64,000 bases of DNA from a virus (UHGV-0214148); one strand, 5' to 3'; positions 6,633 to 45,173 are shown, counted from the first letter of the stretch. Made by a program: numbers and translations. Notes: generated from the sequence alone by a model not told the origin.

Positions 6633-9600
6633 ATGAAAGCGTATCCTTACGATCCTCGGGGGACGAAAACCGAGAATCACTTCTTAGAGGAGCGTATCAT
6701 CGGGTCAGAAAACAACAACGATCGGGTGGTGATTCTAGACCATCGCCCGTTTTTTGAAGATTTAGTCGTCAGACAACCAGGTTCAACCACCCCACTGAGT
6801 CGTGGGGTGGACTACGAACTGCAATATCAGCTGACGGAACTGGATGACTCGGTAGCAGCCAACGTGTATTGTGGGGTACACCTTATCAACCCTTCCATCA
6901 AAGGCATCGTAACCTTTGAAGGACAAATGCTCGGCGGTACGTTCTACGACCCGTTTGTTGATATTCTCGATGAACTGGTGAAATATTTGAATAACCCAGT
7001 CAGTGCTGACTGGTTGTTATTAGAAGGCAGACCGTCGTTATACCCGGCTACGCCTGCGGCAACGTCCTGGGCGGATTTGCTGAACAAAAAATATTTAGCG
7101 TCGGCAGTTCACGATATTGAATTGAAAACCGACGACGCTAACCAGTTAATTAAAGACAAATTAGCTGAAGTTAAAGCGTTAGTCGCCGCGCTGGGTAAAG
7201 AAATCGAGGCATTTAACTACCCGGCACACATCGCGGAAACCAACCCGCACCAAACTACTTCTGCACAGATTAGCGCACATCCTGTTAACTTGAAAACACC
7301 CGACACCTTTATGGCGTACGGGTTAAAGTTGAAAGCACTGACGGATGAACTGAAAGCGTTTCGTTTACCACAGTCAGTTATTGACACGTATATCTCCCAC
7401 TGGATTTCTTCAGAAGTACGGGGTGTGTTTAACTGTACGGTGTCAGGAAACCGTGCACAATTCCGCTCAAAAAACGGTGAGTCAGAAATCATTTTTGCGA
7501 ATGATGGCTTTACGTTAAAATCCAACGGTTCTGTGGTGTTGGCGGTAGGGCATCTGGAGGGAACGGGTGCAGGACGTTACATTAACTGGCGTGCTGGTAA
7601 AAACACCTTACGTATCGAGTCAACAGGCGATGCTTTAGGGATGAACAAACTCACCCTAAACGGTAACCCGTTACTGACTACCACGGCGTTGATGGAATAC
7701 CAACAAGATCCTGATGCTGGCGGGAGCGGCGGCGGTGACCCTGATGACTCGAAGGTGTACATCGAAGGCCGTAATGGGATTAGCTTCACCGGTAAAGGCT
7801 CTCGGACCGATCCTATCGTGGGTACTATCGACCCGACGAAAGCGACAACCGCTGAAAAAGGTGTTGTTAAGCTTAAAACTGGTAAAGGTACAGAAACGGT
7901 TGGGGTTGCAGCAACGCCAGCGTCATTAACACCTTATTCGACCGACCTATCAGGGTATGTGGCTAAAACGACCATGATTAACGGTAAGCCAATGAATGAC
8001 GGCTCCAGGACAATCACGAAAGCTGACCTGGGGTTAGGGCAAGCGGATAACACCGCAGACCTTGACAAACCGTTGTCAACCGAGTTAACTAAGGCGGTTA
8101 GCGGTCTAGCAGATGTAGGCCATCATCACGATTGGTCGGAGTTAGGCATTTATAAAGCTTCTCAATCTGTTTACGGTATTGGACGTTATGCAACTAACCA
8201 GAACGGTTTGGTTGAAAACCGTGCAGTGGTACCGAACATCTTAAAAGAGCTTTCGGCACGTTTAAGTGTGGTCGCTGCGGCAATTGCAAATGCGAAAGAA
8301 GGAACAGTAACGGATTTCGCTGCTGTAAAAGGCGCAGACTGGCGATTTAATAGCCAGGGTACGGCAATCTCCGTTCAGGATTTGAAATATTTCTATTTGC
8401 TGGACGGCACGAAAGGTGACAGTACCGTTACCGGTGCGATTGACCTGCAAACCACCCCGATGTTTAACTGGTTCTCACCGAATAACCAACTTGAGCTGAC
8501 TTGGGCTACGGGTAAGGTGAGTAACGGTACGGGAATCAACTGGACGGGTATTGAAGAACCGCCATTGATGGGGTTCCAGTCTGTCCCGGTAGGTAAAACC
8601 GCTACGCAGATGGGTGACCAGTCAGTTGTTACTGTATTGGCAAAAACGCGTGTAAAAGCATACCAACCGAAGCTCTGGGTTTATGCTGCTGGGGGTGGTC
8701 CGGTTACGGTTTACATTAACGGTATCCAGGCCGCTTCAGGCGAGTCCCCACTCGTTGCGGTGTACGAAACGTCGTCAGACGTTGAAAATTACACAGTGGC
8801 GGTTAAAGCCGAGTGCAGCGACACGACTAAATCCGCAGCGGTACAGTTCGAAGTTTACGATGGTGACTACCCCGTTTATTTCAGTGGTCCTGAAACGCGC
8901 GTAGAGCTTCTCCAGGAGTTTGTTACAACGCACGTAGGGGTTCGTCACTATTTGTACGTTAACATGCTCACAGGCTCTTTGTATTCGCGTGCTGAACCGA
9001 TTCAGAGTATTGCCGTTGACCCAGAGCGCGGTTATATCGGATATGTTGATATCGTTCCTGGTCAGTCTTACGCGAATAAAACTGTGGGGTTTGAAACCAC
9101 GTTTGATTTCGGGAAAAGTGCGGAAGTTAGCGAGCACATCAGCACTCGTAAGGCACACGGACTCAGCGCTGTTGACTGGGCGTTAACGGATAACCCACGG
9201 CTGCCGTTATTAAACCGTGCTATTGCTGAACCAAGAGCGTGTATCTTTAGGAAACCGTTAGCAACCGCTACAGGGGATGTTTTCCATCTTGTCAGTCGCG
9301 GCCTTTATACCTACGCACACAACCAAAACGTGAAGTCGAGTCTTCAATACGTTGTGATACCTGAAGGTGCTACGCCGTATTGTTGGTTTACACCATTTAA
9401 CCCGAAAGAAAACAACGCACCGACATTCGAAGGCTCGTTTGCGTTCGATGTTGACGATGTTGGTGGAACGCAAGCCCTTGCTGCTGCGCCGGATTTGGTT
9501 CTATGCACGTCAACGCAAGGTAGCAGCGTTAAACGTCGCTATCTGCGCATTGACCTAACTACCAAAACCTGTAAGTTGGGGATTGGTTCCCGTTCAGATT

Positions 9601-23535: not shown

Positions 23536-23544
23536 CCCCCCCCC
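23536..23544. repeat. C9/G9 homopolymeric tract inside a GC hairpin
   Basis: Nine consecutive C on the plus strand in the intergenic region about 50 nt upstream of the 23484 start. Confidence 0.6.
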
Positions 23545-24222: not shown

Positions 24223-24705
24223 ATGCTAAAACGTTTTCTATTTGTTGTAACTGCAGCACTTTCGTTGGCAAGCTGTGCCCTACAACCCACCGCTAACGGT
24301 CAATTCTCGACTGTACCCGTAGAGCCACACGACATGGTTATTTACACCTGTATGGGTGTAGAGCAAGATTTTGTAAATTATAAACCTGTCGTCAATTCGA
24401 CTAACCTAATGTTAGGCTCAGTAACTGTAATCGATACTGGTGCTAACTGGGTAGCCACCTGGCCAAATGGTAAGATTGAGTCACCCCAACTTTATAAAGA
24501 TCTATTAGGTAAAGTTAATGGAAATATCGATCCTATCACGGGACAACGTTACTACCGTGTAAATGGGTTACTTTCAAAAACACCAACATTTGCGTATTCT
24601 ACTTTAGAATATAAAACGGGTGATGGTAAAGGCATTACTTTCTTCCACTGTAAAGAAGGTGTAGCGTCTGACACTGGAACAATGCTCCATCCTGCGGAAC
24701 AATAA
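24223..24705 (+). CDS. lipoprotein (160 aa)
   Basis: Signal peptide ending in lipobox LASC; lone plus-strand gene with its own terminator among minus-strand genes. Confidence 0.65.
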   Translation: MLKRFLFVVTAALSLASCALQPTANGQFSTVPVEPHDMVIYTCMGVEQDFVNYKPVVNSTNLMLGSVTVIDTGANWVATWPNGKIESPQLYKDLLGKVNGNIDPITGQRYYRVNGLLSKTPTFAYSTLEYKTGDGKGITFFHCKEGVASDTGTMLHPAEQ

Positions 24706-33510: not shown

Positions 33511-33519
33511 GGGGGGGGG
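33511..33519. repeat. G9/C9 homopolymeric tract, intergenic
   Basis: Nine consecutive G on the plus strand between the stop at 33534 and the start at 33484. Confidence 0.6.
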
Positions 33520-35801: not shown

Positions 35802-37922
35802 TTAAATAACTACCCAGCTTTTGCCATCGGAACCAATCTGCATTAGCGTAATACTTTCATTGGTCTCAATGGGTTTGGCAAGACCTTCCGTCCCACTCTT
35901 TGGAGTGATGAGAACGTTTGAGTTTTCCGGTTTAACGATGATCTTACCAGCCTTATTTGCCACGATCTGTATATTTCTACCCACACTATATTCTAGATCA
36001 GGAATAGTAAGTTGGCCGCCACGGTTGGTGGCTGGGAAATACACATAAGACGACACATCTTCCTCAGATAACACTATACCACCAGAATCACGATTGACCG
36101 AGATCTCAAACTTAGAAATATCGATATCGTAGGCAGTAACTTTCGTAATATCTGTCAGAACCAATTCGTTCAAATCGGTATTAGCTGGACTGTTCGCCAG
36201 ATCAAACGGAGTGCCATTCTTGCCGTCAAGCACAGGTGTGACTTTGATTTTATTGTCACCCGGATAAATGATTTCAAGCGTATGCCAGTTATTATCGTAT
36301 GCACCAAAAGTTCCTAATTGCGCATTCTGCTTTTTATGATGCATCAGATAAAGATTCGTAGCGTCGGTCTGTAAGAAAAAAGACATTAGGTACGGGTTCG
36401 TCTTAGCCACACCAGCGTCAGCAAGTGTAGTACCAGAAGGTAGGTCGGACGCGGAAATACGCCAATAAAGTCCTAATCCGAAACGATCTGCTGCTAAATC
36501 ACCTTTTAGTCTAAAAGTAACGGTCAGACGTCCACCGTAACGTATCATGTCCGCAGCAGTCGCCATTGACTTAGTTACATTCCAAGGTTTCATCGTTACA
36601 GCCTTTCTTAATTCGACGAAATGCCCGTTTCCATCCTCAGTTTTTTGCACGGTTACGTTACAATCAACGATATTGTTCCAACCTTGCCCTTTCAGGGAAC
36701 CATCTCCACGACGACCGTTATAACCAACAGACTCTACTAATGGGGTATAGCTTCTTACCACATTCATATTGTCTTTGGAGCTCTTAGTGTCGTTCTTCGT
36801 CAGGAACATTGCACCAATCGCTGTTCTTGATAATATCTCGGCAGCTATTCTCTCTGAGATAATACCGCGTCGTGCCCAAGAACTGAAATGACTATTCCTT
36901 TCTGCAGACGTCCAGTTATCAGAACTACGGGAGGCAGCACCGTAATAGGCAGCACCAGTGATATTAGGATCGTCAGTGGGATCATTAGTCGGAACATGTT
37001 GGCCATTATCGTCGTACATGAATGGAACAAAAAAGATATTTTTTTGTTCGTTGTTACGATAATTACCGTATATGGTTTCATATTGAGCAGGATATTTTTC
37101 CTTCCAATAATAGGTAGTGTCCCCACAGATCCATGGTACTTCGGCGGTGGCGTACTCGGGCATCTGAGAGAGATGGTCAGAGAGATCAGTTCGGAAACGC
37201 TCTACCATTGCGTTAAATAACGCTGGTTGTTGTGCGTATTGTACTTTAGTCAGATCATACTCTCCCTGCATCCACACTACAGCCAAGAGTTTATTTTTAG
37301 GATTAACTTCCAGGGCTTTTTTGGTCCGGCTAACTAAATCTTTATAAAGCGGTTTGTCCACCCCCCATACCGATGACGCCGCAGAGGCTCCTGTGGCTTC
37401 ATCGAAGGTACCTTCTGCACCACCCGTGAAAGCAGAACCGCCGCGTGCGCAGGGTACTAGTAAGATACCGGCGTTCTTAGGAATATACGGGAGAAGACGC
37501 TTCGCGATATGAAGACCTTGACCCACACATCCGTATTCACCTTTGTCTAAATTGGCATTGGGATGCGAGTATTTGGACATATCTTGCACGTCGTGCAGAC
37601 AGTGATCCGCTGGAATGACGTCGTTATATTTACAATCAGCCCCATTAGGCGTTACCTTCGCACGGCGCGCCATCTGTTTAATTCGCGGATCGGGAGCGTC
37701 CAACGTCGCCGGTAGAGGCAACCCTTCACCATAACTCATCGCATTAGATTGCCCGGCTATAGGAATCACGAAGTAATACTCCGGCTCCGTCGTGCCCTGA
37801 AGTTTTGCAATATCAATTTTATATTCTTTTTCTTCCTTAGAAAGAAGAACTAACGCACCTTTGAGATCGCCAGAGAAATTGTCGAGTTCATGGATACGTT
37901 TCTTTCCAATTGGCTGACTCAT
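35802..37922 (-). CDS. tailspike-like protein with sialate-O-acetylesterase (SASA/SGNH) domain (706 aa)
   Basis: GQSNAMSYG and WMQGEYD blocks typical of the SASA esterase family; N-terminal roughly 35 aa resemble the N-terminus of the 1479-aa fibre. Confidence 0.7.
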   Translation of the reverse strand: MSQPIGKKRIHELDNFSGDLKGALVLLSKEEKEYKIDIAKLQGTTEPEYYFVIPIAGQSNAMSYGEGLPLPATLDAPDPRIKQMARRAKVTPNGADCKYNDVIPADHCLHDVQDMSKYSHPNANLDKGEYGCVGQGLHIAKRLLPYIPKNAGILLVPCARGGSAFTGGAEGTFDEATGASAASSVWGVDKPLYKDLVSRTKKALEVNPKNKLLAVVWMQGEYDLTKVQYAQQPALFNAMVERFRTDLSDHLSQMPEYATAEVPWICGDTTYYWKEKYPAQYETIYGNYRNNEQKNIFFVPFMYDDNGQHVPTNDPTDDPNITGAAYYGAASRSSDNWTSAERNSHFSSWARRGIISERIAAEILSRTAIGAMFLTKNDTKSSKDNMNVVRSYTPLVESVGYNGRRGDGSLKGQGWNNIVDCNVTVQKTEDGNGHFVELRKAVTMKPWNVTKSMATAADMIRYGGRLTVTFRLKGDLAADRFGLGLYWRISASDLPSGTTLADAGVAKTNPYLMSFFLQTDATNLYLMHHKKQNAQLGTFGAYDNNWHTLEIIYPGDNKIKVTPVLDGKNGTPFDLANSPANTDLNELVLTDITKVTAYDIDISKFEISVNRDSGGIVLSEEDVSSYVYFPATNRGGQLTIPDLEYSVGRNIQIVANKAGKIIVKPENSNVLITPKSGTEGLAKPIETNESITLMQIGSDGKSWVVI

Positions 37923-37925
37923 CTA

Positions 37926-38438
37926 CTACTCTCCAAAAGTTAAGATTTTATTGTCAAACGTCAACACGACAGAATCATCACCGATGCCACACGGTGTTTC
38001 ATCTGGGCCGAAAACCACCACGGAGAACTGTCCTTTATAAGCGATGGAATTTGGAGCGATGCTAAGCGTTACCGCGTCTTTACCTACCGTGAACGACTGG
38101 TCGGTTAAATCGTCGGTTTGTAAGTTAGCACCACAAACGGCATTGACGGATTCGATAAGATCGTGTGCATTAAACCCTTCACCTATTACTTTTACCAGAA
38201 TAGGTTGTTGGTTTAACCACCGCTCTGCGGTTAAACGGTTGTAGTAGATTTGCAACGTTCTGTTTCCAGGACGTTTAATCTTTACAATGGCAGTGGAGTC
38301 ACGATCCATTTCATCACTGGTTTTTACGTCACTGACTTCAACCTCGTTCTCTTGCAAGTCAAGTTGGAGGTCATGGTTAACCAGTGAAATAACCATGTTA
38401 AGTGAAGTTAGTGATAAATCTGGTGTGAATTTTTCCAC
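37926..38438 (-). CDS. hypothetical protein, paralogue family B (170 aa)
   Basis: GTG start with TAGGAGGT SD; shares PDLSL...NHD...YY.RL...CG.NLQ..DL and C-terminal CGIGDD.VLTF blocks with 44527..45087. Confidence 0.55.
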   Translation of the reverse strand: MEKFTPDLSLTSLNMVISLVNHDLQLDLQENEVEVSDVKTSDEMDRDSTAIVKIKRPGNRTLQIYYNRLTAERWLNQQPILVKVIGEGFNAHDLIESVNAVCGANLQTDDLTDQSFTVGKDAVTLSIAPNSIAYKGQFSVVVFGPDETPCGIGDDSVVLTFDNKILTFGE

Positions 38439-38492
38439 GTATGTTTACCTCCTAAGGTTGGGGGTCATAAAATATTGACTAAAAAACATTCA

Positions 38493-38501
38493 CCCCCCCC
38501 C
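38493..38501. repeat. C9/G9 homopolymeric tract, intergenic
   Basis: Nine consecutive C on the plus strand about 55 nt upstream of the family-B gene start at 38438. Confidence 0.6.
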
Positions 38502-38535
38502 ACGATTATTTTCAACCGCTTTCAGTTGAAAATAA

Positions 38536-38979
38536 TTAGCTAATTCTCAAATCACGCAGTGCGCCTGTCGATTTCATCGCGTTTTGGAACGCGCCACTGA
38601 TGTTATTAGTCCAGTAATAATGCTGTCCGTTAATAACCTGCTGATAGGTCAGTGCGCAGGTGTTACCACCTAAATTTACGGTAATGTTAGAGGCTCTGCC
38701 TCCTTGTAAGTAAACCGCTAAAGTAGGCTTTGCGTTGGCAACTATCGTCGTTAACTGTAACTCAATACCTACTAAAGTTCCCACCCCGCAGTTACCCGCG
38801 TTTTGAATGGTTCCCTGATTTTTCTGGTTTAACGGCCAGCTTGGTCCTACCGCGCCCCATTTCTTACCTAAAGAATCGCTATATGCAGCGGTTGCAATTT
38901 TACAGCCCATAGATCTTCCCACCATTTGACTCATCATAAAAGGTCTACCCAATCCTAATTTACTACCAGCAGCGCTCAT
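38536..38979 (-). CDS. adhesin-like Gly-rich protein, paralogue family C (147 aa as an intact ORF)
   Basis: Paralogue of 39298..39843; the conserved N-terminal extension and its SD/ATG lie upstream in another frame (see 38980..39044). Confidence 0.55.
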   Translation of the reverse strand: MSAAGSKLGLGRPFMMSQMVGRSMGCKIATAAYSDSLGKKWGAVGPSWPLNQKNQGTIQNAGNCGVGTLVGIELQLTTIVANAKPTLAVYLQGGRASNITVNLGGNTCALTYQQVINGQHYYWTNNISGAFQNAMKSTGALRDLRIS

Positions 38980-39044
38980 CCATTGTTCGCCCGTTTCGTT
39001 CTTAGCCGAAGAACCGACCCACGAACCGGTTACCCCCCCCCCAT
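38980..39044 (-). other. out-of-frame N-terminal extension of the family-C gene with its own SD and ATG, interrupted at a G-tract
   Basis: AGGAG 7 nt upstream of ATG 39044..39042. As sequenced the frame reads M-G-G-G-stop; one extra G, or two fewer, gives MGGGVTGSWVGSSAKNETGEQWMSAAG, which matches the paralogue's MGVASGWVGSSAKAVTGQEWMSVAG. Confidence 0.55.
39033..39042. repeat. C10/G10 homopolymeric tract at the start codon of the family-C gene
   Basis: Ten consecutive C on the plus strand; the last C is part of the minus-strand ATG. Confidence 0.7.
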
Positions 39045-39056
39045 CGCGATCTCCTG

Positions 39057-39287
39057 TTAAGATTTTCTACATGTTATTGAATCGAAAGCACCACGCCCAA
39101 CCCAACGCCAATTATAATGATGATCAGCTTTATAAAGTGTGTATCTGCCCTGCTTTTTTACGTCGAAAATATTGATCGTAGTCTCTTCATTACCCAGCTT
39201 AGCTGTGCCGTAACATACAGGTTCGGGTAGTTGTTGACATCCACTTACTGTAAGCAATGCGAAACCCAGTAAAACTTTTCTTAACAT
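39057..39287 (-). CDS. small lipoprotein (76 aa)
   Basis: Signal peptide with lipobox TVSGC; mature part about 58 aa; lies between the two family-C genes. Confidence 0.6.
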   Translation of the reverse strand: MLRKVLLGFALLTVSGCQQLPEPVCYGTAKLGNEETTINIFDVKKQGRYTLYKADHHYNWRWVGRGAFDSITCRKS

Positions 39288-39297
39288 CTTTCTGTCC

Positions 39298-39843
39298 TTA
39301 GACTACACTTATTGAAATTGTTGCACCGTTCTGATTAAATAACCAGTTGGTTGCCGTCTTAGCCTCATAGCGCCGGACGCCGTTACTGTAAGAGTACGGT
39401 AGAAAAGTAATCTTCGTTCCGTTAAACGAAAGCGTAATATTCTGATTTGGTCCATTAGTTAGGGCCATGTAGATAATACCAGTATTTTGTACTTGGCTAA
39501 GATGTGTGACGCTACAACCCAAGATCGAACCTGACACCGAACCGGCCGCATTTTGTGTTTGCACACGATTCGATACTGTAGAACCAGCACCCGTTGTTGT
39601 AGAGTTGTTCGAATACCCCCCATACGTATTTGTAATAGGAACCCACTGCGTGTTCGTAGCCTGCACCAAAACAACATAGGTTGATCGGCCTACAACGAGT
39701 TTAAGATCCTCTACGCTACGCCCGACCATCTGCGACATGTTAAATGGTGTGCTCAGTTTAAGCTTATTACCTGCCACACTCATCCACTCCTGACCGGTTA
39801 CTGCCTTTGCTGAGCTTCCAACCCAGCCGGATGCTACCCCCAT
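39298..39843 (-). CDS. adhesin-like Gly/Ser/Thr-rich protein, paralogue family C (181 aa)
   Basis: ORF length; paralogy with 38536..38979 including the N-terminal extension. Confidence 0.6.
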   Translation of the reverse strand: MGVASGWVGSSAKAVTGQEWMSVAGNKLKLSTPFNMSQMVGRSVEDLKLVVGRSTYVVLVQATNTQWVPITNTYGGYSNNSTTTGAGSTVSNRVQTQNAAGSVSGSILGCSVTHLSQVQNTGIIYMALTNGPNQNITLSFNGTKITFLPYSYSNGVRRYEAKTATNWLFNQNGATISISVV

Positions 39844-39861
39844 AAATCCTCCAAACTAAAA

Positions 39862-39881
39862 TAGGGGGATTACTCCCCCTA
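39862..39881 (-). terminator. intrinsic terminator
   Basis: Stem TAGGGGGA/TCCCCCTA. Confidence 0.5.
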
Positions 39882-39884
39882 TCT

Positions 39885-42800
39885 TTAATTCCCCTTGAGT
39901 TCTTTAAGCTCTTGGCGAAGAGTTTTCATGCCTTCTACTAACAACGCAATAACACCATTGTAATTTAGACGTAAACGTTTTTCGCCTGAAATGGCATCAT
40001 CATCCTCAGACACAAGCTCAGGTAACGCTTCTAGAGCGTCCTGAGCAATTAGACCTACAGAAGTCTGCCAGCCGTCGTCAGGATGCTGAATTTCGTACAA
40101 ATAACCGGTTAGTAACTCTAACCGATCCAAAGCCTTATCCAGCTTCACCAGATTACGTTTGTTACGACGGTCAGAACGAATCTGTACGTCGTTAAACGAA
40201 CCGTTACCGTTGCCAGTAACGTTATGTCCAAAGTTTACTTGGCCGTTAGAATTATTAAAAGACAACGGGCGTAATCCGTTCCAGGAACCCGCTGCGGCTT
40301 GTCCGGCGTCGGTTACTAAGAAATAGGTATTGGCACCGTCGTTACGTAAAATAAAACCGTAGGTACCGTAAGCGATTCGAAAATCAGGGTATTTAGTGGC
40401 CAATTTACCATTAACGGTTAAATCACCGCCTACAGTACCGCCCCCTGACGGTAACGCGCCCACTTCCGCAGCAGTTGGCTTGTTTCTCGTATTGTAAGCA
40501 CGACGCCAGCCTGGTGAGTATCCATCGCCGTTAAATACGTAGATAAACTCCGCATTAGTGAGTGCTCCGCCGACGCTCGTCGTTGTGGCGGTCGTTATAC
40601 GGATCGTGTAGTTGTTTGTGCTGTTGCCGTTACTAATGACTTCTATAACGGCCCCAGCTAACGGAATGACACCACAACCCGTCTCGCTGTGAGGTATGGA
40701 CGCACTGGCGGCATAAGCCCACGCACAGCGAGCAACCCACGATCTTGTGGTAAATGCGCCGTTATTTTTCAATAACGTCACTAGCTGTGCTGTAGTTATT
40801 GCACCGCCATTAGCGCCAGTTTCTAACCAACCACTAGGTGATGCCGGACAACCTATTTCGGCTGGCCCTAACGATATATTTCTAGTGCCATCAAACGCAA
40901 TACCATTGATGGTTCTTGCGGTTTGCAACTTTGTTGCCGTGGCTGCGTTTCCGGTGGTCGACTGATTCCCTGTTTGGTTTACTCCAGGTAAGTTGATGTC
41001 TTTAGTACCATCAAAAGCTACGCCACCTATATTTCGCGCAGTCTGGAGCTTAGTCGCAGTCGCAGCATTCCCCGTCGTCGATTGGTTACCGGTTTGGTTC
41101 ACACCGGGCAGACTAATGTCTTGCGAACCATCAAAGTTAATACCACCGATCTTACGTGGCGTTTGTAACTTAGTAGCGGTCGCTGCATTACCTGTCGTAT
41201 TCTGGTTACCTTGCTGGTTAACCCCCGGTAAATTGATATCCCCAGTACCGTCAAAGGTAACGCCCCCGATTCTGCGAGCAGTTTTCAGTTTCGTCGCGGT
41301 AGCAGCGTTACCAGTAGTATCTTGATTACCGGTGGTATTTACACCAGGAATACTATCACGGGCAGTATAAACTTGTGCCCAATCTGACCACGGCGCATCC
41401 GCTGTATCGCGTCGACTACGAATATAAACGGGTGCGTGCGCACCACTCGTGCCCGACCAACCGATTAACAGTTCACCTTCACCTAGCGCAGTAGAACCGC
41501 CCAAATGCAGCAAGTTACCATAAGCGGTCGGATAACCGTTATTGTAAACTTCGTACATCTGAATACCGGGTGTACCTTTGTTTGAACCGGTTAGTGCAGT
41601 AACCCGACCACGACCTACCAGGGTGTTGATATTGATGTCAGCAGAACCATCGAATCTCACACCGTTAATATTTCTGGCAGTTTGAAGTTTAGTGGCTGTC
41701 CCGGCATTACCCGTGGTGTTTTGATTACCCTGTTGGTTAACACCTGGGAGGTTAATATCAGCACTACCGTCGAAAGCGACTCCACCAATTCTACGTGCCG
41801 TCTTTAATTTCGTTGCGGTTGAAGCATTGCCTGTTAACTCGCCTGCTAACCCTTTTGCAAAGGTCTGTTTTTCTGCCCAGGTGTGTGCTGCATTCAATAC
41901 AGGCATCTGTCGTGGTGTAATCGTACGACTACCTTTCTCACCAGCGATACGTACTGCAAAGAATCGATAGTTGGCAGTAGACACCGTACTACGCCAAACC
42001 AACATACTCCGGCCTGATGTAGCGCCATCTGATGGACCAACCAGAATGCTAACTAAGTTACCGTCAATAACACCCCAATCCATTCCCGTAGGAATGTTTT
42101 TCATGGTGTTAAGCGGCGTACAGATTAACTCACCCGGTTTAAAGTCATAGGTTTGCCAGTCTAAAGGATCAACATTCGCACGTTCACCGCCGATACCTAA
42201 TACCAGCGGAAGCGAATACGATGTGAAAACCTCACGCCAATCGCTCCAAGCGTTACCCGTACGGATACGTTGGAATTTACGACCTTTAGTTTCTGTACCC
42301 GTACCGTATGTAGTATAATTCTGTTCGACCCCTGTACCGTCTAAGCGTAAGGTAACTTCACAAACGCCTAATATGGTTTCACCAGAAGAACCGGTAAGTG
42401 GACCGTTAGTTGCTTCACCAGTGACACTGAAACGTCCCGGTTTAACGAGATCGTTAAAATTGGCTTTAAAGAAAGCACCGTCAGTCTGATAACCAACCTG
42501 AATCCAATCTTCCCATTGCGGGTTTGATGAATCCCACGTTGCGGTCAAACCACGAACATACATCGTACCACGACGTGTGGTGTATCGCTGCAACCGTCCG
42601 AAAAGACCACCTTCCATTACTTCTAGTACGCCTTGCGCACCGCCACCTTCTTCAGGGTAATGTCTGCTAAAAACAGCCAGCGAACTGCTTGAGTTTCGCC
42701 AGTTACCCATATGCTCAGCGCCACCCAAACTGTTCAAGTCTATAGCGGTAGATAATGGACGTACACCAGTAGTTACCATTCTCCACGGCGACCAGGGTCC

Positions 42801-44324
42801 ATTGGCACCATTCCACTCGCCACTCAGCATACGGTTGTACACGTTACCATTACGACAGGTAAAACGCTGTGCACCACTGTAATTACCGGCTTTATACACT
42901 TCCAGATAACCGACTGCACCGTCTTCTGGGAAATGTTTTGCCATCGACGCATTGGTTGACGTCGACTTAGCCCACGTTCCTGTGTAATTGGCATCAGGAG
43001 CAAATGTGTTAATATCAGCATCTACAGGCATTTCGCCACGGAAACGTAGATAGGTGTCAGGAGACAGACCGATATTGCGAGCAAACGTTTCTTTATCTGG
43101 GATATCAGCGCCGTTAGAGTTTTTCTGTAACGCGCCATTCGCTTTATCTACAGTGGCTTTTAATCCCAAGAAATTGATGATATCCGCAGTTGACCCTTTC
43201 GCTAACAAGGATCTGGCCGTTTCTGTAAAATCCGTTAATCCGACTTTATTACTGCCAGTGAAATACATGAGTTTATTTGCCGCTGTGGTGACTGCGGCAA
43301 TGGCGGTGAGCAACGGACTGAGAGGTTGTTTCTGCGCAAGTTCCCCAGTAATCGTTGTTGCGAAGTTAGGGTCATTACCTAACGCCTCAGCTAATTCCGC
43401 TAAGGTATTTAACGTCTCGGGTGAAGAACCAACCAGTTCCGCAATCGCGTCACGCACCCAGGCCGTTGTGGAGATGCTCGTGTCGTTCGAGTCCTTCGGG
43501 GGTGTTGGGGATGACGGTTTACCCGTAAAATTCGGCGAATGTTTATTGGCTTTTAACTGTAATTCGTCATTCAGCTGTTTAACCGTGGACGGTGTGGCGG
43601 CCTCAGTCACGGATTCGCTAGTCAGTGTATCGTTAAGTTTAACGATACCTTTACCGGTCGTACTAGCGTCGATTAAGCCCTGCGCAGCGATTTTCTCCGC
43701 ACGTAAGGCAGCTGACTCCGAGCGTGTTGCTGCGCCTTCTGAACTTTCTTTATCTTTCGCGACCTGTGCAGCAATCTTCTCCACTGCGCCCTTACTGGCC
43801 TCAACTGAAGCCGCAGTATTCTCGACACCGGTAGCCGTCTGTTGGACTTGTCCGGCCTGTTGCGTAACCGTTTCTGCTTTCTTAGTTACATCAGCCGCTG
43901 CAGCCGTCACCGATTGTTCGCTTGTAGCGACAGCTTGAGCTTTCTCATTTACCGACTGTAATACAGTATCTACGGCAGTTTTCGCGGCTAAAACTTCAGC
44001 GTGTTTTTTGTTAACCTCAGCAGTTTTAGTGGCAACGGTTCCCGCTTGCTCGCTAACGGTGGAAGCTAACGTGTCAGTTTGTTGCTTCGCGGTTTCTGCT
44101 AAGTCTTTTGCTTGTGTGGCTTCTGTTGCAGACTGTTGTGATTTGGCCGCAGCCGTTTGTGCGTCAGCAACCGCGTTTCTGACGGTGTCAATATCCGCAA
44201 CAATCTCGCGGACAGGTAACTGATAATCCCTTTCGTCTTTCGAAAAAAGTAAAACGCCTTCACCGATATCCCCGGTGTATGGACGTAAATCGTGTAAACG
44301 AATTTTCTTTACCGCTTTAGCCAT
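39885..44324 (-). CDS. long tail fibre with coiled-coil shaft, tandem fibre repeats and C-terminal intramolecular chaperone domain (1479 aa)
   Basis: Ala/Gln/Thr-rich coiled coil; about six copies of a roughly 40-aa repeat (NTTGNAATATKLQTAR.IGGV.FDG..DINLPGVNQ.GNQ); C-terminal SDRRNKRNL...LTGYLYE resembles peptidase-S74 chaperone domains. Confidence 0.85.
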   Translation of the reverse strand: MAKAVKKIRLHDLRPYTGDIGEGVLLFSKDERDYQLPVREIVADIDTVRNAVADAQTAAAKSQQSATEATQAKDLAETAKQQTDTLASTVSEQAGTVATKTAEVNKKHAEVLAAKTAVDTVLQSVNEKAQAVATSEQSVTAAAADVTKKAETVTQQAGQVQQTATGVENTAASVEASKGAVEKIAAQVAKDKESSEGAATRSESAALRAEKIAAQGLIDASTTGKGIVKLNDTLTSESVTEAATPSTVKQLNDELQLKANKHSPNFTGKPSSPTPPKDSNDTSISTTAWVRDAIAELVGSSPETLNTLAELAEALGNDPNFATTITGELAQKQPLSPLLTAIAAVTTAANKLMYFTGSNKVGLTDFTETARSLLAKGSTADIINFLGLKATVDKANGALQKNSNGADIPDKETFARNIGLSPDTYLRFRGEMPVDADINTFAPDANYTGTWAKSTSTNASMAKHFPEDGAVGYLEVYKAGNYSGAQRFTCRNGNVYNRMLSGEWNGANGPWSPWRMVTTGVRPLSTAIDLNSLGGAEHMGNWRNSSSSLAVFSRHYPEEGGGAQGVLEVMEGGLFGRLQRYTTRRGTMYVRGLTATWDSSNPQWEDWIQVGYQTDGAFFKANFNDLVKPGRFSVTGEATNGPLTGSSGETILGVCEVTLRLDGTGVEQNYTTYGTGTETKGRKFQRIRTGNAWSDWREVFTSYSLPLVLGIGGERANVDPLDWQTYDFKPGELICTPLNTMKNIPTGMDWGVIDGNLVSILVGPSDGATSGRSMLVWRSTVSTANYRFFAVRIAGEKGSRTITPRQMPVLNAAHTWAEKQTFAKGLAGELTGNASTATKLKTARRIGGVAFDGSADINLPGVNQQGNQNTTGNAGTATKLQTARNINGVRFDGSADININTLVGRGRVTALTGSNKGTPGIQMYEVYNNGYPTAYGNLLHLGGSTALGEGELLIGWSGTSGAHAPVYIRSRRDTADAPWSDWAQVYTARDSIPGVNTTGNQDTTGNAATATKLKTARRIGGVTFDGTGDINLPGVNQQGNQNTTGNAATATKLQTPRKIGGINFDGSQDISLPGVNQTGNQSTTGNAATATKLQTARNIGGVAFDGTKDINLPGVNQTGNQSTTGNAATATKLQTARTINGIAFDGTRNISLGPAEIGCPASPSGWLETGANGGAITTAQLVTLLKNNGAFTTRSWVARCAWAYAASASIPHSETGCGVIPLAGAVIEVISNGNSTNNYTIRITTATTTSVGGALTNAEFIYVFNGDGYSPGWRRAYNTRNKPTAAEVGALPSGGGTVGGDLTVNGKLATKYPDFRIAYGTYGFILRNDGANTYFLVTDAGQAAAGSWNGLRPLSFNNSNGQVNFGHNVTGNGNGSFNDVQIRSDRRNKRNLVKLDKALDRLELLTGYLYEIQHPDDGWQTSVGLIAQDALEALPELVSEDDDAISGEKRLRLNYNGVIALLVEGMKTLRQELKELKGN
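40850..41340 (-). repeat. tandem roughly 120-nt coding repeats (fibre repeat units)
   Basis: Near-identical DNA units seen directly; further copies lie around 41640-41830. Confidence 0.6.
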
Positions 44325-44526: not shown

Positions 44527-45087
44527 TCATGTAGCCGGGTTTTCTTCAGCTGTGTCGTCATCTGGAACCTCAAAGGTAAGAACGGCATCATCACCAATAC
44601 AGAAGATCGCATCATCTTCGTTTGCTAATGCTCGTTCGGTTGTATCGAATAACGTTACCATAAACGCATTCATCCACGCAGGAGAATCGTCAGCAACGTT
44701 AACAGCAATGGGTTCGTTACCTAAGGTGATATCTGCAGCACGTAAATCTTCGGGTTGTAAGTTCGTTCCGCAGAATTCATTTACAACACCTAAAATGTCA
44801 CGAAGGTTGTCTTCAGTACCGTCTAACGAAATCAAAATAGGTTCAGACGCTAACACTTCGTCCGCATCCAAACGGTCGTAATAAACAACCACAGAAGCAC
44901 CATCAGGTTTCCTGATTTTTGTAATCTCTGTCAGTGTGTTACGACGCGAAGTGGTCGGGGACGGGTTTGCCATAGTGTTGCTAATACGGATTTCGTTTAG
45001 AGACAACCGTGAACCGTTATCGTGGTTGATTAAAGCGACCACTAATTCGGCTGAGGCCAGACTTAAATCAGGTACGTAAGTAGTCAC
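44527..45087 (-). CDS. hypothetical protein, paralogue family B (186 aa)
   Basis: Start reassigned to GTG 45087 (GGGAGG 5 nt upstream); the track ATG 45153 lies upstream of terminator 45121-45144, and homology to 37926..38438 begins right after the GTG. Confidence 0.55.
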   Translation of the reverse strand: MTTYVPDLSLASAELVVALINHDNGSRLSLNEIRISNTMANPSPTTSRRNTLTEITKIRKPDGASVVVYYDRLDADEVLASEPILISLDGTEDNLRDILGVVNEFCGTNLQPEDLRAADITLGNEPIAVNVADDSPAWMNAFMVTLFDTTERALANEDDAIFCIGDDAVLTFEVPDDDTAEENPAT

Positions 45088-45120
45088 TAAAACCTCCCAG
45101 ATCAAAAAAATAAAAACACC

Positions 45121-45144
45121 TACCGCCCATAGAATCGGGCGGTA
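45121..45144 (-). terminator. intrinsic terminator
   Basis: Stem TACCGCCC/GGGCGGTA followed on the minus transcript by a U-rich run. Confidence 0.55.
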
Positions 45145-45173
45145 GACAGTCATTTTACAGCTAAAAAATCAAA

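Follow-up and report, generated by a model that had tools for sequence, protein, structure and literature searches.

Lipoproteins of the Cor/Llp type inactivate a receptor on the bacterial surface, which keeps both other phages and the progeny of the phage itself from attaching; in small siphophages and lambdoid prophages they are the textbook way of disabling the phage's own receptor. A gene for such a protein, cor, lies between two genes for gp38-type adhesins (adhesin A before it and adhesin B after it) in a 64,000-nucleotide (nt) stretch of virus UHGV-0214148, a phage of about 225 kilobases (kb). The whole of this stretch is referred to below as the window, and all coordinates are counted from its first letter. 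A sequence-only reading of the window had placed a 76-amino-acid (aa) lipoprotein with the lipobox VSGC, three cysteines and a mature part of about 58 aa at 39057-39287, and had likened it to superinfection-exclusion lipoproteins of the Llp and Cor type. Open reading frame (ORF) calling in the window recovered exactly this interval as a 76-aa ORF on the minus strand with an ATG start, and both the lipobox and the three cysteines (residues 17, 25 and 73, or 1, 9 and 57 in mature numbering) are present; the mature protein is slightly longer than proposed, at 60 aa, with a predicted isoelectric point of 8.9. The gene comprises the following features.

39057..39287, minus strand: cor, encoding a 76-aa prolipoprotein of the Cor family
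39240..39287, minus strand: cor signal peptide (aa 1-16), of the class-II (lipoprotein) type, MLRKVLLGFALLTVSG and then C
39237..39239, minus strand: codon of the lipobox residue Cys17, located with a lipobox regular expression
39295..39299, minus strand: cor Shine-Dalgarno sequence AAGGA, spaced 7 nt from the ATG and sharing nucleotides with the TAA stop codon of adhesin A

The prolipoprotein reads MLRKVLLGFALLTVSG followed by CQQLPEPVCYGTAKLGNEETTINIFDVKKQGRYTLYKADHHYNWRWVGRGAFDSITCRKS, with cleavage predicted between the two, before Cys17. In its signal peptide, a basic n-region (R3, K4) precedes a hydrophobic core and the lipobox V-S-G-C, which fits the pattern [LVI][ASTVI][GAS]C; Cys17, the residue predicted to be lipidated, aligns with the invariant column of the family, and the residue at position +2 is Gln, not Asp. 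A six-frame scan of the whole window found lipobox signal peptides in cor and in one other ORF only, at 24223..24705. The latter (plus strand, 160 aa, MLKRFLFVVTAALSLAS followed by C) matches PHROG 9559, a family of unknown function.

Two curated models match the protein over residues 6-75, namely PHROG 1119, "Cor superinfection exclusion protein" (E 1.3e-25), and the NCBIfam equivalog NF047972, "phage exclusion lipoprotein Cor", whose cut-off of 31 bits it clears with 69; Pfam holds no model for Cor. With tblastn against 50,697 phage records, identity was 61% to the Cor proteins of Shiga toxin 2 (Stx2) phage 86, phi296 and POCJ13, 54% to that of SSU5, 44% to that of N15, 40% to those of HK022, phi80 and many lambdoid phages, and about 23-25% to that of T1. 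The proposed kinship with Llp- and Cor-type exclusion proteins is thus upheld by both models and by the identity of 40-62% to Cor genes annotated as such or studied by experiment. Across 90 aligned members of the family, C17, C25 and C73 alone are invariant. The family is narrow: only 50 clusters (50% identity) of 1.84 billion representatives reach E 1e-3, and a single-sequence search of a set of 5.8 billion proteins returned only the protein's own cluster, the wider family being reached with a profile of seven Cor sequences. In IMG/VR, a scan with the single protein returned nothing, indicating that the phage is absent from that collection, and a profile-derived pattern found only lambdoid-type Cor, on contigs of no more than 60 kb. 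The identical Cor protein is on record on 96 contigs, and the nucleotide sequence of the gene is identical at 231 of 231 positions in 10 of 11 related contigs. Given the two matching models, the sharing of the protein by so many contigs and the nucleotide conservation, the ORF is not a product of chance. Judged by its sequence, the small gene is a genuine Cor family member, ordinary in kind and in an unusual place.

The AlphaFold2 model of Cor, made with the 90-sequence alignment, is a small four-stranded beta structure with a mean predicted local distance difference test score of 85, and of about 94 over the mature domain. When sequences in the PDB were searched with the Cor profile, Llp of phage T5 ranked first (8a60_B, E 0.044), a weak match which is not significant alone and which spans the signal peptide and mature residues 1-30. 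The cysteines of mature Cor are spaced as C1, C9 and C57, against C1, C11 and C58 in Llp, where Cys11 and Cys58 form a disulphide, and a disulphide shared with Cor has been noted (PMC9586334). The fold predicted for mature Cor is the small beta-rich one of Llp; that Cor and Llp are one family has also been concluded from models elsewhere (bioRxiv 10.64898/2026.03.26.714494).

Adhesins, long fibre and the poly-G tract

Around cor lie the following features.

39298..39843, minus strand: adhesin A, 181 aa, a gp38-type fibre-tip adhesin; Gp38_N attachment domain at the N-terminus, C-terminal domain of its own
38536..39044, minus strand: adhesin B, gp38-type, 168-169 aa when in frame, frameshifted in the window
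39033..39042, minus strand: poly-G tract of 10 G, including the G of the ATG, in codons 1-4 of adhesin B
39045..39056, minus strand: cor-adhesin B junction, 12 nt, CAGGAGATCGCG and then ATG, with the adhesin B Shine-Dalgarno sequence AGGAG
39885..44324, minus strand: long tail fibre, 1479 aa, with a C-terminal Peptidase_S74 intramolecular chaperone
39858..39885, minus strand: upstream hairpin with a U-rich stretch (-19 kcal/mol, z -3.2), terminator-like, between the fibre gene and adhesin A
38505..38536, minus strand: downstream hairpin of 14 base pairs, starting at the adhesin B stop codon (region -33.1 kcal/mol, z -3.5)

Adhesin A, cor and adhesin B follow the long-fibre gene directly, as a closely packed unit with a hairpin at either end and with gaps of 10 nt between adhesin A and cor and of 12 nt between cor and the start of adhesin B. 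No stable RNA structure was found at the adhesin A-cor junction (-2.5 kcal/mol, z -0.3), nor any RNA structure at the cor-adhesin B junction (-2.7 kcal/mol, z +0.6). A sigma-70 scan was uninformative (9 sites against 9.4 expected) and does not apply to this phage group, and the G+C content of the cassette is not distinct from that of its flanks. The long fibre matches Pfam Phage_fiber_2, Gp34_trimer and Peptidase_S74 as well as many tail-fibre PHROGs, and is presumed to be the carrier of the gp38-type tips; a fibre with a Gp38_N adhesin is also laid out in phi296, in SSU5, in the Escherichia coli SSU5-like phage-plasmid CMS-2020a and in contigs L102 and L105.

Both neighbours of cor are Gp38_N proteins, in agreement with the earlier placement of the gene between two genes of one family downstream of a giant fibre. 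The ORF listed for the second neighbour, 38536..38979, proved to be only the 3' part of a frameshifted adhesin B. Adhesin A matches Pfam Gp38_N (E 2.4e-20) and PHROG 1121, 'tail fiber adhesin' (E 6.9e-53). It shares 69% identity with its counterpart in the Stx podophage phi296 and 72% with the adhesin of contig L100. Adhesin B matches PHROG 1121 (E 9e-32), and Gp38_N at positions 21-40 only; in the window just its 147-aa 3' ORF is open, and full-length genes of 168 and 169 aa were called in contigs L007 and L016. The two adhesins are 67% identical over the N-terminal 45 aa and 22% identical over the rest, so that they share the attachment domain and differ C-terminally, which argues for alternative tips for one fibre rather than simple duplicates. 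The nearest relative of adhesin B is the adhesin of CMS-2020a (96% nucleotide identity over 135 nt), a B-type adhesin with no cor after it. This 135-nt match was the only one obtained by megablast with the 1.5-kb cassette against the 50,697 phage records, indicating that no close DNA relative has been deposited there.

The true start of adhesin B is the ATG at 39044..39042, which is followed by nine further G. With the 10 G of the window, the reading frame of adhesin B is lost after four codons. Among 12 near-identical genomes, the tract has 8 G in one (ON, 168 aa), 9 G in five (OFF), 10 G in five, the window included (OFF), and 11 G in one (ON, 169 aa). The cluster of adhesin B at 90% identity holds ON forms of 167, 168 and 169 aa together with OFF forms of 124 and 147 aa, and ON and OFF products each occur on several contigs of about 225 kb. 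The 167-aa forms, which belong to other lineages, start MGVASGW, and the homologous adhesin gene of CMS-2020a has a run of 5 G only, with no poly-G switch seen. Runs of at least 10 G or C would be expected 0.03 times by chance in the window. Tract length sets adhesin B ON or OFF, a pattern which, as far as the sequences go, fits a homopolymer contingency locus. Such loci have recently been described in phages (PMC12633550), and in Campylobacter Fletchervirus a tract of 7-11 G in a receptor-binding gene is cited as giving rise to ON and OFF subpopulations (Sorensen et al. 2021, as cited in PMC12633550). Homopolymers of 9 G or C are also found at 23536..23544, 33511..33519 and 38493..38501, all of them intergenic and 25-55 nt upstream of minus-strand starts, and the window holds no G/C runs of 7 or 8. 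Among related contigs these intergenic tracts vary by 1-2 nt (9-10 nt for the tract at 38493, 8-10 nt for that at 33511); they could serve as contingency tracts in regulation, or could just be homopolymers that are unstable or badly assembled. Their variation is a caveat for the adhesin B switch, as it would mean that homopolymers are generally unstable in this phage, or imperfectly assembled.

Further observations concern the fibre and other genes near the unit. The long fibre has 1479 aa in the window and in most contigs, and 1439 aa in three (L005, L007 and L016); the fibre alignment has 120 gap columns in locus coordinates 8001-8500 (about 40800-41300 of the window), and the difference looks like a copy-number change in a region of roughly 40-aa repeats. 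On the minus strand, 44527..45153 and 37926..38438 encode DUF7941 paralogues (34% identical, E 2e-32), each of which precedes one gene with a fibre-type N-terminus, giving two tandem modules of DUF7941 plus fibre. The ORF at 35802..37922 (minus strand, 706 aa) is about 50% identical to the NanS-p/YjhS 9-O-acetyl-sialate esterase of Stx prophages and matches Pfam SASA and DUF6645, and over its first 36 residues it is similar to the long-fibre N-terminus (E 1e-9). Its sequence suggests a virion-attached sialate O-acetylesterase acquired from lambdoid phages. A tblastn search with this protein for a syntenic locus in jumbo phages reached the NanS-p genes of Stx phages instead.

Recurrence of the adhesin-cor pair and distribution of the phage

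Five further contexts were examined (phi296, SSU5, L100, L102 and L105), and in every one an A-type adhesin gene precedes a cor of the same clade. In phi296, cor follows the adhesin after a gap of 12 nt. Contig L100, of 2.3 kb, comes from a Salmonella Enteritidis assembly, and its cor is followed by a DUF7941 gene, as in the window, which marks a related backbone of the jumbo type; its Cor is diverged (67% identical in the mature part) and stands at the same position. L102 and L105 are SSU5-like contigs, and in L102 a second gp38 adhesin, of 274 aa, follows cor, so the arrangement of cor between two adhesins is not unique. Across the five contexts, C-terminal identities of the adhesin of 70, 66, 53, 54 and 47% fall with mature Cor identities of 67, 62, 60, 60 and 57%.

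In SSU5, L102 and L105, two genes, phrog_557 and phrog_425, stand between the adhesin and cor, and in phi296 both are present about 3 kb downstream. They belong to the families of N15 gp22 and gp23 and of T1 orf32 and orf31. SSU5_024 was considered as a third gp38-type adhesin and rejected, being a phrog_425 protein homologous to N15 gp23. In SSU5-like phage-plasmids (L102 5529..6353; L001 5112..5974) the fibre, a short Gp38_N adhesin, phrog_557/425 and cor stand in one row, in which a second, T2-type (274-aa) gp38 adhesin is sometimes present. Adhesin A and cor have apparently travelled together, as one cassette, among Stx podophages, SSU5-like phage-plasmids and the jumbo phage of about 225 kb, and the SSU5-like phage-plasmids are a likely donor pool for the cassette of the window.

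The phage of the window is a distant relative, 73-75% identical at the nucleotide level over short stretches, of Erwinia phage Asesino (Erskinevirus), of phiEaH2 and of Salmonella SPN3US-like jumbo phages. Many of the 96 contigs with the exact Cor are 225-227 kb long and come from ENA and Logan metagenome assemblies. Proteins of the adhesin B cluster (P0125, P0127, P0128) are encoded on contigs of about 195-225 kb in NCBI isolate assemblies labelled Shigella flexneri and Salmonella enterica, which points to an enterobacterial host and gives a hint of the host range and, possibly, of a carrier state. Among the Cor matches listed (the top 41 records and a spread of 60 of 126), the longest phage record is 113 kb, so that Cor in a jumbo phage appears undescribed. 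Nucleotide diversity among the 12 genomes (L005-L016 comparison) is 0.001-0.008 at about 37900..40900 of the window, a stretch which runs through the fibre C-terminus, adhesin A, cor, adhesin B and DUF7941, and is 0.02-0.05 in the flanks, with peaks of about 0.1.

Candidate receptor and alternative explanations

Llp is periplasmic and recognises the FhuA plug in a non-native state; it makes loops EL7 and EL8 fold inward, which prevents the binding of pb5, and Cor is expected by the authors of the FhuA-Llp structure to act as Llp does (PMC9586334). By analogy with that crystal structure and with Cor genetics in phi80, N15, HK022 and T1, the Cor of the window would be a lipoprotein of the inner leaflet of the outer membrane, a placement suggested by the lipobox together with Gln at +2, and would jam a receptor from the periplasm. 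It would bind an outer-membrane receptor, most likely a TonB-dependent transporter, from the periplasmic side, and binding would lock that receptor in a state unusable to phage receptor-binding proteins. A neighbour-joining tree placed the window clade (window, phi296 and SSU5) as sister to N15/phi80, with T1 outside, and the Cor proteins of N15, phi80 and T1 are reported to be FhuA blockers (PMC9586334; bioRxiv 10.64898/2026.03.26.714494; PMC13164509). As its clade is bracketed by these blockers, FhuA would be the most parsimonious guess for the target of Cor, although the target may have changed. The translational packing of cor after the fibre gene suggests that Cor is made together with late fibre components, a timing that would suit sparing the progeny wasteful adsorption to lysed-cell debris and vesicles, and excluding competitors.

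Taken together, the gene is probably a functional Cor-type receptor blocker. That the receptor it blocks is the one bound by adhesin A is possible, if somewhat doubtful, and Cor is here either matched to adhesin A or an orphan still blocking an ancestral target. Several points weigh against a working blocker matched to the adhesin beside it. The known T-even gp38 adhesins bind porins and Tsx/FadL-type proteins, and none is known to bind a TonB-dependent transporter. We infer the lipidation, the localisation and the exclusion activity of Cor alike, and its late co-expression with the fibre genes is suggested by gene packing only. The trough in nucleotide diversity was rejected as a sign of a sweep, the contigs having been picked by exact Cor identity (ascertainment). 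Since BtuB-using phages have Cor-like proteins too (PMC13164509), family annotation does not fix the target. As phrog_557/425 are present in SSU5, L102, L105 and phi296, Cor may there match that module and not the gp38-type adhesin. Finally, a tblastn search with 12 phrog_557/425 proteins from SSU5, N15, phi80, T1, L102 and phi296 detected no homologue in the 64 kb of the window (best E 0.066).

This last result bears directly on whether Cor has kept its ancestral target, be it FhuA or another TonB-dependent transporter, rather than the receptor of the jumbo phage itself, and serves only to exclude unrelated T1-, T5- and phi80-like phages from the infected or carrier cell, its place beside the adhesins being a by-product of cassette transfer. 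An extended cassette of phrog_557, phrog_425 and cor is tied to FhuA use in T1, HK022, N15, ES18, phi80 and BASEL siphophages (PMC13164509; PMC8594841), whereas T5-like phages that use BtuB have Cor-like genes without it (PMC13164509); the presence of phrog_557/425 thus defines the FhuA cassette, not the Cor protein family. That SSU5-like elements keep the pair between the gp38-type adhesin and cor, that the window has cor with no detectable homologue of either, and that its Cor clade is bracketed by FhuA blockers would all suit such a displaced blocker. However, cor stands directly after the A-type adhesin (gap of 10-12 nt) in three backbones (the phi296/Stx 86 type, L100 and the window), the adhesin and Cor proteins diverge in step, the search for the pair covered 64 kb of about 225 kb, and the receptor of A-type adhesins could itself be FhuA. 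An ancestral target aimed at competitors alone is regarded as rather unlikely.

The missing partner genes, and an adhesin B so often out of frame that parts of the cassette seem dispensable, could also suggest that cor merely came along with the adhesins and has no selected function in the jumbo phage. This is very improbable in view of the intact ORF with its ribosome-binding site, lipobox and all family-invariant residues, the identity of the protein on 96 contigs and of the gene in 10 of 11, and the retention of the diverged L100 copy, 67% identical in its mature part, at the same place in a second jumbo-like contig. A small lipoprotein of another kind, whether an o-spanin, some different lysis component or an assembly helper for fibre or adhesin in the periplasm, would likewise be a small outer-membrane lipoprotein with (predicted) periplasmic cysteines, as o-spanins are, and the gene does lie among fibre genes. 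However, no gene for an i-spanin, holin or endolysin overlaps or adjoins cor, only Cor models are matched over the full length, the predicted fold matches that of Llp, and fibre assembly is cytoplasmic whereas Cor is predicted to be exported, leaving this explanation exceedingly improbable.

If Cor is a receptor blocker matched to adhesin A, the three genes could constitute a self-consistent host-recognition switch, in which adhesin A binds a TonB-dependent transporter, Cor shuts that transporter off in infected cells, and the poly-G-switched adhesin B gives a minority of the progeny a second receptor specificity that is not blocked. The full scheme is speculative and, taken whole, improbable. 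If true, it would provide the first case of a gp38-type adhesin paired with a blocker of the Cor/Llp type, and the phage would hedge between a receptor disabled by itself and by cor-carrying competitors and an alternative receptor. In this scheme Cor might also protect carrier-state cells, given the phage contigs in Shigella and Salmonella isolate assemblies.

Setting and comparison with known systems

The locus is a new setting for a known family: a jumbo phage, gp38-type adhesins on both sides, no phrog_557/425 in the window and a putatively phase-variable adhesin B. An intact, highly conserved Cor packed against gp38-type tips implies that the exclusion gene is carried along with receptor-binding cassettes among virion types as different as podophage, siphophage-plasmid and jumbo phage, and offers a route to ask whether short gp38-type adhesins target TonB-dependent transporters. 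If a jumbo phage of therapeutic or environmental use carries cor, the cells that it infects, or carrier cells, could become resistant to unrelated FhuA-dependent phages of a cocktail, and the poly-G-switched adhesin B would be an experimentally tractable contingency locus in a host-range gene of an enterobacterial phage.

The poly-G tract of Fletchervirus likewise lies in a receptor-binding gene and is of similar size (7-11 G against 8-11 G in adhesin B). Unlike that system, the present one has an enterobacterial host and belongs to a jumbo phage, its tract is at codons 1-4 and varies in length between genomes, and the putatively switchable gene is an alternative tip beside an exclusion gene.

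T5 Llp, the lytic conversion lipoprotein (PDB 8A60, 7QJF), has the same pattern of a lipid-anchor cysteine and a disulphide stapling the termini, which in the Cor described here is predicted, and follows the same logic, in that a virulent phage blocks a receptor from the periplasmic side; the two proteins are only about 20% identical. The Llp gene adjoins that of the receptor-binding protein pb5, whereas cor here adjoins Gp38_N adhesins and is embedded in a presumably late fibre unit. Llp is made shortly after infection (bioRxiv 10.64898/2026.03.26.714494).

The Cor proteins of phi80, N15, HK022, mEp167 and T1 belong to the same curated family (NF047972, PHROG 1119), are 75-80 aa long, have the lipobox at the same position and the same invariant cysteine pair, and are likewise encoded in the tail-fibre or host-recognition region; those of N15 and phi80 are 38-45% identical to the Cor of the window. 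These phages are siphophages of 40-60 kb, in contrast to a jumbo phage of about 225 kb, in which cor stands between gp38-type adhesins without a preceding phrog_557/phrog_425 pair. The closest relatives are the Cor proteins of the Stx2-converting phages 86, phi296 and POCJ13 (Traversvirus) and of SSU5-like phage-plasmids, with 57-62% identity in the mature part. Their genomes share the layout seen here, a fibre with an S74 chaperone followed by a Gp38_N adhesin of 181-185 aa and then cor, but these elements are temperate and, unlike the window, additionally carry phrog_557/425.
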